Shown here: positions 8,289 through 58,786 of the stretch, piece after piece
How the letters are laid out: every line of letters starts with the position of its first letter
Numbering within the stretch: the stretch's first letter is position 1
Origin: Escherichia coli
GTDB taxonomy: Bacteria > Pseudomonadota > Gammaproteobacteria > Enterobacterales > Enterobacteriaceae
NCBI RefSeq assembly: GCF_003334315.1
Contig: NZ_QOWR01000008.1
Length of the DNA stretch: 64,000 nt
Direction: 5' to 3' (one strand)
The notes under the pieces: model-generated
Seen by the model: only the letters and a program-made list of their open reading frames with translations
Databases searched by the model: none
What the model was told of the DNA's origin: nothing
Position numbers and translations under genes: made by a program

Positions 8289-8352
8289 TTGTCGGATGCG
8301 GCGTCATCGCCTTATCAGACCGCCTGATATGACGTGGTCACGCCACATCAGG
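8289..8352. repeat. REP/BIME-like palindromic units in the flhB-cheZ intergenic region
   Basis: gtcggatgcggcgtcatcgccttatcagaccgcctgatatgacgtggtcacgccacatcaggc resembles the REP consensus. Confidence 0.5.
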
Positions 8353-8361
8353 CAATACAAA

Positions 8362-12998: not shown

Positions 12999-14660
12999 TC
13001 AAAATGTTTCCCAGTTTGGATCTTGTTCAGCAATTCGCAGTCGTGGCTGTGCCGGTGGTTGCTCACTGGCAGGACGGGATGGTGTTTGCGGTTTATTGGT
13101 GAGTGGGCTGGCTGCCAGACGGAACGCGGAAACCGCTTGCGTTAAACGACTCGCCTGTTCTTCCAGCGCAGCGGCGGCGGCAGCTGATTCCTGCACCAGC
13201 GATGCGTTCTGTTGCGTGACGCGATCCATTTCCGAAACCGCCAATGCGACTTGATCGATGCCACGGCTCTGTTCATCCGATGCCGATGCAATCTCGCCCA
13301 TAATGTCAGTCACGCGAGTGACAGCATTGACGATATTGTTCATTGTTTCCCCGGCGCTTTCGACCAGCACCGAACCGGTATCAACGCGTGAGACGGAGTC
13401 TTCAATGAGGGCTTTGATCTCTTTTGCCGCCTGGGCGCTGCGACTGGCAAGATTACGCACTTCACCCGCCACCACGGCAAAACCACGGCCCTGTTCACCC
13501 GCACGCGCGGCTTCAACCGCGGCATTCAGCGCGAGGATATTAGTCTGGAAGGCAATACCGTCGATAACGCTGATAATGTCGGCAATTTTCTTCGAACTAT
13601 CGGCGATCTCATGCATCGTTTTCACTACGCCATCCACCACTTTGCCGCCGTGCTGGGCGGTGTCGGAGGCACTTTGCGCCAGTTGCGAGGCCTGGCGGGC
13701 GTTATCGGCGTTTTGCTTCACTGTCGCGGTGAGCTGCTCCATGCTGGCGGCAGTTTCTTCCAGCGCGGATGCCTGCTGTTCAGTACGGGAGGAAAGATCG
13801 GTGTTGCCCGCCGCAATTTCACGGGTACCGGCATAGATGGCATCTGAACCTTCGCGGACATGAGTGACGGTGTCAGTCAAAGAGCGTTGCATATGTGAAA
13901 CGCTCTGCGCCAGGTCGCCCATTTCACTGCGCCCGTCAATGGTCAGGGTATTCGCCAGGTTACCACCGGCGATTTCGCGAATGTGAGCAATAATTTTTGC
14001 CAGCGGAGTAAGCAACATACGGCGAATGCCGTACCACGCCACCAGCAGAATCAATACCACCACCAGCGCGATAACCGCCAGTTGCCACTGGGCAAATCGG
14101 TAATCATCTGCGTTGTCAGTGACGATATCGCGATACAGTTTTTCACTGCTGAGGGCGTACTGAGCAAACGCTTCGCCCATTGCATTTTGCATTCCCTGGG
14201 TTGGCTGAGCGAAATAAGCTCCAGTATTGCCATAATCTAGATAATCAATCAGTTCAGTTAACGCTGTGTAATAGTTTTTATATTTTTCATCAATATTACG
14301 ACTGGTAGCGACCATTTCAGGTAACGGTGCCATGCTTTTGAATTTTTTATAATGCGTCGCTGCCTGCGCCAATGTTTTCCTGGCGCTATCGAGCAATTCA
14401 ACTTTGGCGTTACTTTGTTGATTGGAGGAATCCATCATCATCCGTACCGCTGAACGACTCAGGTTAATGCGCGTTTGCAGCATTAAATCCCAGGTTGACG
14501 TCAGCTCGCCCTGCTGTTCCCGTAATTGATTGGAAACCACAAAGCTCTTCTGGCTATGGTGAAGGGAAGAAAAAAACAGACTGCCGGAAATAAGCTGTAA
14601 CAGTGCGAATACCCCCAGCACCATTACCAACAGCGTGACTACGCGGATACGGTTAATCAT
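12999..14660 (-). CDS. tar: Methyl-accepting chemotaxis protein II (aspartate/maltose sensor) Tar
   Basis: ORF 12999-14681; start moved to [11 protein letters not shown] (553 aa); C-terminal NWETF pentapeptide present. Confidence 0.95.
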
Positions 14661-14691
14661 AAGGCACCTTCCTGAAAACAAGTTGATCTCG

Positions 14692-14718
14692 TTATCGGCA
14701 AGGAGGGGGGAAACTTTA
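14692..14718 (-). promoter_or_regulatory. Sigma-28 (FliA) class 3 promoter of the tar-tap-cheRBYZ operon
   Basis: Minus strand reads TAAAGTTT, 11-nt spacer, GCCGATAA: exact match to sigma-28 consensus, about 30 nt upstream of tar. Confidence 0.85.
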
Positions 14719-14748
14719 TTGCTGATGCCACCCGCCGCGAAATTGAAA

Positions 14749-14776
14749 TAAAAAACCCGATGCGCAGATCATCGGG
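14749..14776 (-). terminator. Rho-independent terminator downstream of cheW (end of motAB-cheAW operon)
   Basis: Hairpin cccgatg/catcggg (14756-14776) followed on the minus strand by a U-run. Confidence 0.7.
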
Positions 14777-14804
14777 TTCATTTCAATTGAGGAAATCGGG
14801 AGAA

Positions 14805-15308
14805 TTACGCCACTTCTGACGCCGCGCTATCTAACAGCGCCATCTCTTCGCTGTTCAGCAGTTTTTCGATGTTCACCAGAATCAACATCCGGTCGCCCAG
14901 TGCGCCCAGTCCAGTGAGATATTCTGTTGAAAGCGTCACGGCAAATTCCGGTGCCGGACGAATTTGCTCCGCCGTCAATGAAAGCACGTCTGAGACGCCG
15001 TCAACCACGATGCCGACCACCCGCTGTCCGAGATTCAGGACGATAACTACCGTGTTGTCGTTATAGTCCACATCCACCTGGCTGAACTTAATTCGTAAGT
15101 CAACAATCGGCACAATAACGCCGCGCAGATTCGTGACGCCTTTGATAAACGCTGGCGTGTTCGCAATCCGTGTTACCTGATCGTAGCCACGGATCTCCTG
15201 CACTTTCAGGATATCAATACCGTACTCTTCATCACCAAGGGTAAATACCAGAAATTCCTGGCCTGACGGCTCGCTGGCCAGCTTTGTTACATTCGTCATA
15301 CCGGTCAT
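14805..15308 (-). CDS. cheW: Chemotaxis coupling protein CheW
   Basis: 167-aa ORF matching recalled CheW. Confidence 0.97.
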
Positions 15309-19234: not shown

Positions 19235-19813
19235 TTAAACAGCCTGTACTCTCTGTTCATCCAGCAGTTGTGGGATAATATCGGCAGGATTCTGGGAAAG
19301 TTTACGTCTTTTTACTGCCCGGGATGGCGGTTGACATAAGCTGCAGGCAAAGCTGCCAACAGGCTGGTGAGCGTGGGTAATAAAATTGCCGCCGCAGCAG
19401 TTGCAGCTGGAAAGTTGCAGTAATCCACTTTCAACAAACCGCACCAATGTCCAGGCACGGGTTAATGCCAGCAGTGGTCCTTCTTCTGCTTGTGGGCACT
19501 GTTCAAGGTATAAACGGTAGGCTTTGATCACCGCATCGACGCCATTACACAAACCGGTTTTCAGTAAAAACTGCCATGCATTACAGAACATCGAAGCATG
19601 AACGTTTTGTTCCCAGGTCATAAACCAGTCGGTTGAGAATGGCAGCATGCCTTTCGGCGGTGGGCTTCCGCGCAGTTCTTTATAAAGTTTTATCAGGCGT
19701 CCGCGACTTAACTGTGTTTCGCTTTCCAGCATCTGCAAACGAGCGCCCAGGGTGATCAATTCCATTGCCAGCTGAATATCCCGCGCTTCCTGAACAATGC
19801 TTTTTTCACTCAT
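19235..19813 (-). CDS. flhC: Flagellar master regulator subunit FlhC
   Basis: 192-aa ORF with zinc-binding cysteines; matches recalled FlhC. Confidence 0.96.
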
Positions 19814-21380: not shown

Positions 21381-24733
<3,353 letters not shown>

Positions 24734-33009: not shown

Positions 33010-33096
33010 TGGTACCCGGAGCGGGACTTGAACCCGCACAGCGCGAACGCCGAGGGATTTTAAATCCCTTGTGTCTACCGATTCCACCATCCGGGC
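33010..33096 (-). tRNA. leuZ: tRNA-Leu (anticodon UAA)
   Basis: Minus strand reads GCCCGGATGGTGGAATCGGTAGACACAAGGGATTTAAAATCCC...GGGTACCA (87 nt) with encoded CCA. Confidence 0.95.
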
Positions 33097-33108
33097 TCGG
33101 GAAGAAAG

Positions 33109-33182
33109 TGGAGGCGCGTTCCGGAGTCGAACCGGACTAGACGGATTTGCAATCCGCTACATAACCGCTTTGTTAACGCGCC
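33109..33182 (-). tRNA. cysT: tRNA-Cys (anticodon GCA)
   Basis: Minus strand reads GGCGCGTTAACAAAGCGGTTATGTAGCGGATTGCAAATCCGTC...CTCCA (74 nt). Confidence 0.95.
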
Positions 33183-33236
33183 AAATTCTTCAGGCCTTTC
33201 AGCCAGACATCCGCTTGAGGCCGATGTCTTTTAAAC

Positions 33237-33312
<76 letters not shown>

Positions 33313-42983: not shown

Positions 42984-43008
42984 GATAAACAGCCCTGCGT
43001 TATATGAG

Positions 43009-43016
43009 TTATCGGC
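43009..43016 (-). promoter_or_regulatory. Candidate sigma-28 -10 element (GCCGATAA) of the autoregulated fliA promoter
   Basis: Minus strand GCCGATAA about 25 nt upstream of the fliA start; the -35 is a poor match. Confidence 0.5.
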
Positions 43017-43102
43017 ATGATTATCCGTTTCTGCAGGGTTTTTAATCGGACGATTAGTGGGTGAAATGAGGGGTTATTTGGGGGTTACCGGTAAATTGCG
43101 GG

Positions 43103-44612: not shown

Positions 44613-44688
44613 GATTTCTTTTCCTGTTTTCAAGTCTACGGTTTAAGTATTGGGCTTCCACCCTTCGGCTTCGTCGCCGTCAACCCTG

Positions 44689-44715
44689 TTATCGTCTGGT
44701 CACTCACAACCTTTA
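44689..44715 (-). promoter_or_regulatory. Sigma-28 promoter of fliC
   Basis: Minus strand reads TAAAGGTT, 11-nt spacer, GACGATAA, about 75 nt upstream of fliC. Confidence 0.8.
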
Positions 44716-44788
44716 GAATTTTTTTCTAGCGGTCGAAATACTCCCCTTCCTCGTTGCTGTTCGTGCCATTAAGGCAAAAAATAAATCG

Positions 44789-44815
44789 TAAACTTTACCC
44801 CGCTTACGCCGATAA
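44789..44815 (+). promoter_or_regulatory. Sigma-28 promoter of the fliDST operon
   Basis: Plus strand reads TAAACTTT, 11-nt spacer, GCCGATAA, 45 nt upstream of fliD. Confidence 0.85.
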
Positions 44816-44859
44816 CCCCGGTATTCGTTCTATACACGTCGCATGATTAAGGAAACTAT

Positions 44860-58682: not shown

Positions 58683-58786
58683 CGTCAGAGGTAGCACCGT
58701 AATCCTCGTCTTTTCCCCGCTTTGTTGCGCTCAAGACGCAGGATAATTAGCCGATAAGCAGTAGCGACACAGGAAGACCGCAACAC

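Follow-up and report, generated by a model that had tools for sequence, protein, structure and literature searches.

A perfect σ28 (FliA) consensus promoter upstream of the tar-tap-cheRBYZ operon in an Escherichia coli chromosomal window

The DNA analysed here, a window of 64,000 nucleotides of an Escherichia coli chromosome, carries on its minus strand a run of flagellar and chemotaxis genes in the order flhDC, motA, motB, cheA, cheW, a 144-nt spacer, tar, tap, cheR, cheB, cheY, cheZ, a 201-nt gap and flhB. Gene annotation was taken from the RefSeq record of one E. coli genome that is identical over this stretch: tar, which encodes methyl-accepting chemotaxis protein II and is the first gene of its operon, occupies 12999-14660; it is followed on the same (minus) strand by tap (12953-11352), cheR (11333-10473), cheB (10470-9421), cheY (9406-9017) and cheZ (9006-8362), with gaps of 45, 18, 2, 14 and 10 nt between successive genes from tar to cheZ. 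Over the 801 bases around the site considered below, many complete E. coli chromosomes agree with the window at 100% identity, and 5386 of 5426 genomes have a match, which is annotated as cheW and tar. Elsewhere in the window, Rfam models identify MicL, an sRNA, at 381.9 bits, together with three tRNA genes (410-717 and 33013-33312, both on the minus strand).

Direct reading of the window shows gcaaTAAAGTTTcccccctccttGCCGATAAcgagatcaacttgttttcaggaaggtgccttATG on the minus strand at the cheW-tar junction; the site follows the cheW terminator, precedes tar and has the orientation of tar. The order of elements is GCAA, TAAAGTTT, CCCCCCTCCTT, GCCGATAA, CGAGATCAACTTGTTTTCAGGAAGGTGCCTT and the ATG: the −35 element TAAAGTTT lies at 14711-14718; a C-rich spacer of 11 nt, CCCCCCTCCTT, at 14700-14710; and the −10 element GCCGATAA at 14692-14699, which combines a core with a “GC” pair termed the extended −10 element (PMC12784957). 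The −10 octamer is separated by 31 nt from the annotated tar ATG (14660). The initial annotation had reported these octamers, the 11-nt spacer and the coordinates 14692-14718, all of which prove exact to the nucleotide when the minus strand is read; it had also called the site a perfect match to the FliA class 3 consensus, and this holds as well, as both octamers match at 8/8 positions and the consensus quoted is the published one, TAAAGTTT-N11-GCCGATAA (PMC2859248 Table 1).

Simple arithmetic puts the expected number of perfect 16-base matches at this fixed spacing at ~3e-5 in 128,000 positions, and the tar site is the only perfect σ28 consensus site in the window. When up to three mismatches are allowed, a pattern search finds five sites in the window where 0.65 would be expected, and shuffling the sequence 100 times with dinucleotides preserved never gave five sites at that threshold. 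The initial annotation had proposed a weight-matrix scan as a check. For the matrix we took the 52 ChIP-seq sites that Fitzgerald et al. 2014 list for FliA (PMC4183435 Table 2), and we ran it without tar (51 sites) and without all six sites of this region (46 sites): the tar site ranks first in the window, over both strands together, in either run, at 26.1 bits (51-site matrix) and 25.5 bits (46-site matrix) out of a maximum of 29, whereas 100 shuffles peaked at 21.1-21.4 bits. With the matrix built without tar, the tar site is also the highest-scoring of all 52 published K-12 FliA sites.

Published data from K-12 bear directly on the function of this sequence, as the 28-mer in the window is identical to the published K-12 tar site, TAAAGTTTCCCCCCTCCTTGCCGATAAC. 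In E. coli MG1655 this 28-mer is a FliA ChIP-seq peak with a fold above threshold (FAT) of 57, the peak being centred at 1970737 and the motif at 1970761 of NC_000913.2; normalised expression of tar-tap-cheRBYZ falls significantly, from 251 in the motile wild type to 0 in the fliA deletion (PMC4183435). These two results bear out the claim of the initial annotation that the site is a FliA-dependent class 3 promoter of tar. The table of FlhDC binding sites in the same study does not include tar, as expected for a class 3 promoter. Cloned tar promoter fragments serve as FliA-controlled reporters (PMC4295839; PMC2859248), and no clear CRP binding was seen on the tar fragment, unlike the aer, trg and tsr fragments (PMC2859248). 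The tar coordinates 1969054..1970715 given by Kim et al. 2012 (PMC3415461) permit conversion to window positions, which puts the centre of the ChIP peak at 14682, ~24 nt downstream of the motif centre. This offset agrees with the 25-nt offset that the authors of the ChIP-seq study report for holoenzyme-bound FliA (PMC4183435), and the peak centre lies 2-4 nt from the predicted transcription start. We put the probability at about 97% that the site is the class 3 promoter from which FliA (σ28) drives the tar-tap-cheRBYZ (“meche”) operon. A σ70 promoter for tar was considered and rejected: a promoter scan of the minus strand from 14300 to 15100 finds no σ70-like site, and expression is 0 without FliA (PMC4183435).

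The position of the transcription start can be predicted from σ28 promoter geometry. Primer extension placed the +1 of E. coli aer at the sixth nucleotide past the −10 octamer (PMC2859248), and in the open complex of Pseudomonas aeruginosa fliC the octamer covers positions −15 to −8 (PMC12784957). By this geometry, the tar +1 would lie within 14686-14684 on the minus strand (~1970739-1970741 of NC_000913.2), i.e. at the sixth to eighth nucleotide past the −10 octamer; A14684 is the most likely +1 base, a choice that we favour on the basis of purine preference. The leader would then be 24-26 nt long. The start 25-30 nt before the ATG given by the initial annotation overlaps this estimate at the low end of its range and not in its upper part. 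Kim et al. 2012 list no start at the tar promoter in their set of transcription start sites (PMC3415461 supplement); the one start that they assign to tar, with 3 reads, lies 408 nt upstream, inside cheW, at 1971123 of NC_000913.2 (PMC3415461). That position corresponds to 15068 on the minus strand of the window and has GCCGATTG in its upstream sequence; it probably reflects noise or very weak initiation inside the gene. Our guess is that the tar start is missing from that set owing to poor flagellar gene expression in the strain used. The text of the Cappable-seq and SMRT-Cappable-seq supplements has no entry near the tar site.

The short 5' leader (14661-14684, minus strand, counted from A14684) carries a Shine-Dalgarno sequence, AGGAAGG, at 14673-14667, 6 nt before the tar ATG. 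A mechanical search for open reading frames starts tar at TTG 14681; we rejected this start, as it is the annotated ATG at 14660 that has a Shine-Dalgarno sequence 6 nt upstream, and the TTG would fall at about +4 to +6 of the predicted mRNA. A structured leader or riboswitch-like control was likewise rejected: the leader together with the first 30 coding nucleotides folds no better than shuffled sequences (z = +0.58), and no significant structure is found in the leader.

Upstream of the promoter, the motAB-cheAW operon ends in an intrinsic terminator at 14753-14779 on the minus strand, a hairpin followed by UUUUUUAUUU (−20.6 kcal/mol; z = −4.96 against shuffles); the −35 element starts 34 nt after this hairpin, and the terminator parts the two operons. 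Downstream, the sense (minus) strand holds no terminator-like site from 14700 to 8362, and published RNA-seq and RT-PCR showed no co-transcription of cheZ and flhB except at extreme FliA overexpression. The 201-nt cheZ-flhB gap contains putative palindromic REP-type repeats (8290-8355, minus strand) in place of a canonical terminator made of a hairpin and a U-run. The tar-tap-cheRBYZ operon structure is thus supported by the gene gaps, the lack of sense-strand terminators, the repeats after cheZ and the published RNA data. The initial annotation had named this operon, and the structure stands on those grounds; it had also taken the promoter to confirm the operon, and this step does not stand, as a promoter alone does not establish an operon.

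In the operation of this promoter, RNA polymerase with FliA binds the site, with σ region 4 likely contacting TAAAGTTT and regions 2 and 3 likely contacting GCCGATAA; the DNA then melts, and transcription starts at a predicted ~6-8 nt past the −10 octamer, at window positions 14684-14686. The resulting mRNA would consist of the 24-26 nt leader followed by tar, tap, cheR, cheB, cheY and cheZ. FlgM keeps FliA inactive until the hook-basal body is complete, so that the chemoreceptors and chemotaxis signalling proteins appear only late in flagellar assembly.

Three other explanations of the site or of its transcript have to be weighed against this one. As the motAB-cheAW and tar operons adjoin on the same strand, most tar-cheZ mRNA could in principle come from transcripts that start at the FliA-dependent motA promoter, 4.6 kb upstream, and read through into tar, which would make the perfect tar site redundant. 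Both promoters need FliA, so the loss of tar mRNA in the fliA deletion does not tell them apart, and, because the deletion silences the motA promoter too, the RNA-seq data taken alone are compatible with read-through into tar; anti-termination has moreover been proposed to act on both long operons (PMC10578931). Three observations address this point: FliA has its own ChIP-seq peak centred on the tar site (PMC4183435), the strong hairpin with its U-run stands between cheW and the motif, and isolated tar fragments are active as promoters on reporter plasmids (PMC2859248; PMC4295839). In addition, both E. coli at large and other genera retain the perfect site. We consider it very improbable that read-through is the main source of the transcript. 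Less probable still is that the site is a chance match without function; consensus matches can arise at random in general, and nothing further speaks for this explanation. It is opposed by the ~3e-5 perfect matches expected in the window, by the correct orientation and distance to a chemotaxis gene, and by in vivo FliA binding and conservation, and the published ChIP-seq and RNA-seq data have already refuted it (PMC4183435).

The remaining explanation holds that the conserved sequence is part of a small RNA gene on the plus strand, the candidate sRNA C0465 (Rfam RF00116), which runs across the cheW-tar spacer, and that the likeness to a promoter is secondary. There is indeed a full-length RF00116 match at 14708-14785 on the plus strand, with 111.6 bits where the gathering score is 40, and it overlaps the −35 octamer. 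However, the match covers only 11 nt of the 27-nt motif and leaves the −10 octamer outside; the promoter scan finds no σ70-like promoter upstream of C0465 on the plus strand; the modelled C0465 structure is mostly the palindromic cheW terminator; and the hairpin is significant on the minus strand, where it has a proper U-run (z = −4.96), but weak on the plus strand (z = −1.71), where its tail is poor. The high score simply reflects that the family was seeded on this E. coli sequence, and overexpression of C0465 left motility, biofilm and fimbriae unchanged (PMC4606813). We therefore rejected C0465 as the primary explanation of the motif, giving it about as little credence as read-through from motA, and regard it as probably a legacy microarray annotation that is co-located with the tar promoter.

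The FliA-dependent tar promoter is well conserved within E. coli. The 71 nt that span promoter and leader are present in 5372 of 5426 complete E. coli genomes and identical in 2885; the non-identical genomes that we sampled mostly differ by a single mismatch in those 71 nt. In the sampled variants this is a C-to-T change at spacer position 6 (O157:H7, 14EC033) or 8 (Cn5) with both octamers intact, the spacer being the only part of the promoter that varies among the sampled genomes. The spacer alleles are CCCCCCTCCTT (2885 genomes), CCCCCTTCCTT (1058, including O157:H7) and CCCCCCTTCTT (947), and the octamers are unchanged in all three. From these exact-match counts, at least 4890 of the 5426 genomes keep the perfect consensus, a figure that rests on the three commonest alleles and is exclusive of the other ~480 genomes. 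It is conceivable, though unlikely, that either the C-to-T spacer alleles tune promoter strength by lineage or C0465, transcribed on the plus strand from the −35 region, interferes with the firing of tar; if true, either possibility would be a modest addition to what is known of a textbook promoter. Separately, in E. coli strain E1 an IS1A element interrupts the tar leader immediately before the start codon (~355-655 of the locus taken from NZ_CP195951.1), and the annotation gives cheW as a pseudogene that carries an internal stop; judged from its sequence, E1 looks like a natural chemotaxis-defective strain.

We also scanned species-representative genomes, as plain DNA, for the perfect motif, which gave at least 120 stretches with a match. 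Among the matches listed, 15 of 100 first downstream open reading frames match flagellin, FliD or a chemoreceptor encoded in the window. Also among the matches listed are three Enterobacterales loci, in Photorhabdus caribbeanensis, Acerihabitans arboris and “Klebsiella sp. BIGb0407”, where the perfect site falls in the gap that separates cheW from the first receptor gene of a receptor(-receptor)-cheRBYZ cluster. The flanks of these cheW-receptor loci have diverged, with a mean column identity of 41%. Because the perfect motif was the search criterion, the octamers of these loci are invariant across genera by construction, and independent evidence comes from the position of the site alone; a perfect 16-mer in the same few-hundred-base spacer of three genera is very unlikely to have arisen by chance. 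Further afield, the matches listed include several Gastranaerophilales/Melainabacteria genome bins with 2-4 perfect copies of the E. coli σ28 consensus each, and, in Legionella, Nitrospira and others, perfect copies that precede a flagellin or FliD gene. Together they show the exact σ28 consensus to be in wide use.

The tar promoter has been in the literature for decades, and the sequence is real and functional. The value of the site as a discovery is accordingly small: tar is a reference σ28 promoter with published binding and expression data. It serves instead as a calibration point, in which a real regulatory element was named to the base from the sequence alone.

Compared with known FliA promoters, the site in the window shows no difference from the K-12 tar promoter at the promoter itself: the two share the identical 28-mer, the same cheW and tar flanks and the same downstream operon (PMC4183435). 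The window also holds the promoter of motAB-cheAW (“mocha”), TAAACTTT-N11-GCCGATAT, which has two mismatches and lies at 19277-19304 on the minus strand, inside the 3' end of flhC; this flhC-internal site is the published motAB-cheAW promoter and also the source of the MotR sRNA (PMC4183435, PMC10578931). The two promoters are alike in σ factor, 11-nt spacing, class 3 regulon and strand, with the motAB-cheAW promoter 4.6 kb upstream; they differ in that the latter stands within coding sequence and has a leader that yields MotR, whereas the tar site is intergenic, perfect and followed by a short leader.

The divergent σ28 promoters of fliC (minus strand) and fliD (plus strand) lie at 44688-44816; their spacers differ from those of MG1655, and the fliD promoter has one mismatch here as against two in K-12, which indicates that the window comes from a non-K-12 strain. 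The flagellin open reading frame of the window is short (~436 aa). The weight matrix also finds FliA-type sites upstream of fliA (43008-43035, minus strand) and of fliL (58731-58758, plus strand), each identical to the published K-12 site and scoring 15-19 bits. A weak FliA-type site, TGAAATTG-N11-GCCGATAA, runs antisense in otsA (22510-22537, plus strand); Fitzgerald et al. 2014 list the identical sequence as an intragenic ChIP-seq site that scores low and has no effect on expression (PMC4183435). Since the same matrix recovers the motA, fliA, fliC, fliD, fliL and otsA sites, the window represents a standard E. coli flagellar region II/IIIa. The C0465 family of Rfam (RF00116), by comparison, shares with the tar promoter the cheW-tar intergenic region and part of the −35 octamer but lies on the opposite strand. 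Across the regulon, the tsr, flgM, yhjH, aer, trg, fliC and fliD promoters have the same octamer/11-nt/octamer architecture and the same dependence on FliA, aer and trg needing CRP as well (PMC2859248); unlike tar, each of the seven has at least one mismatch to the consensus.
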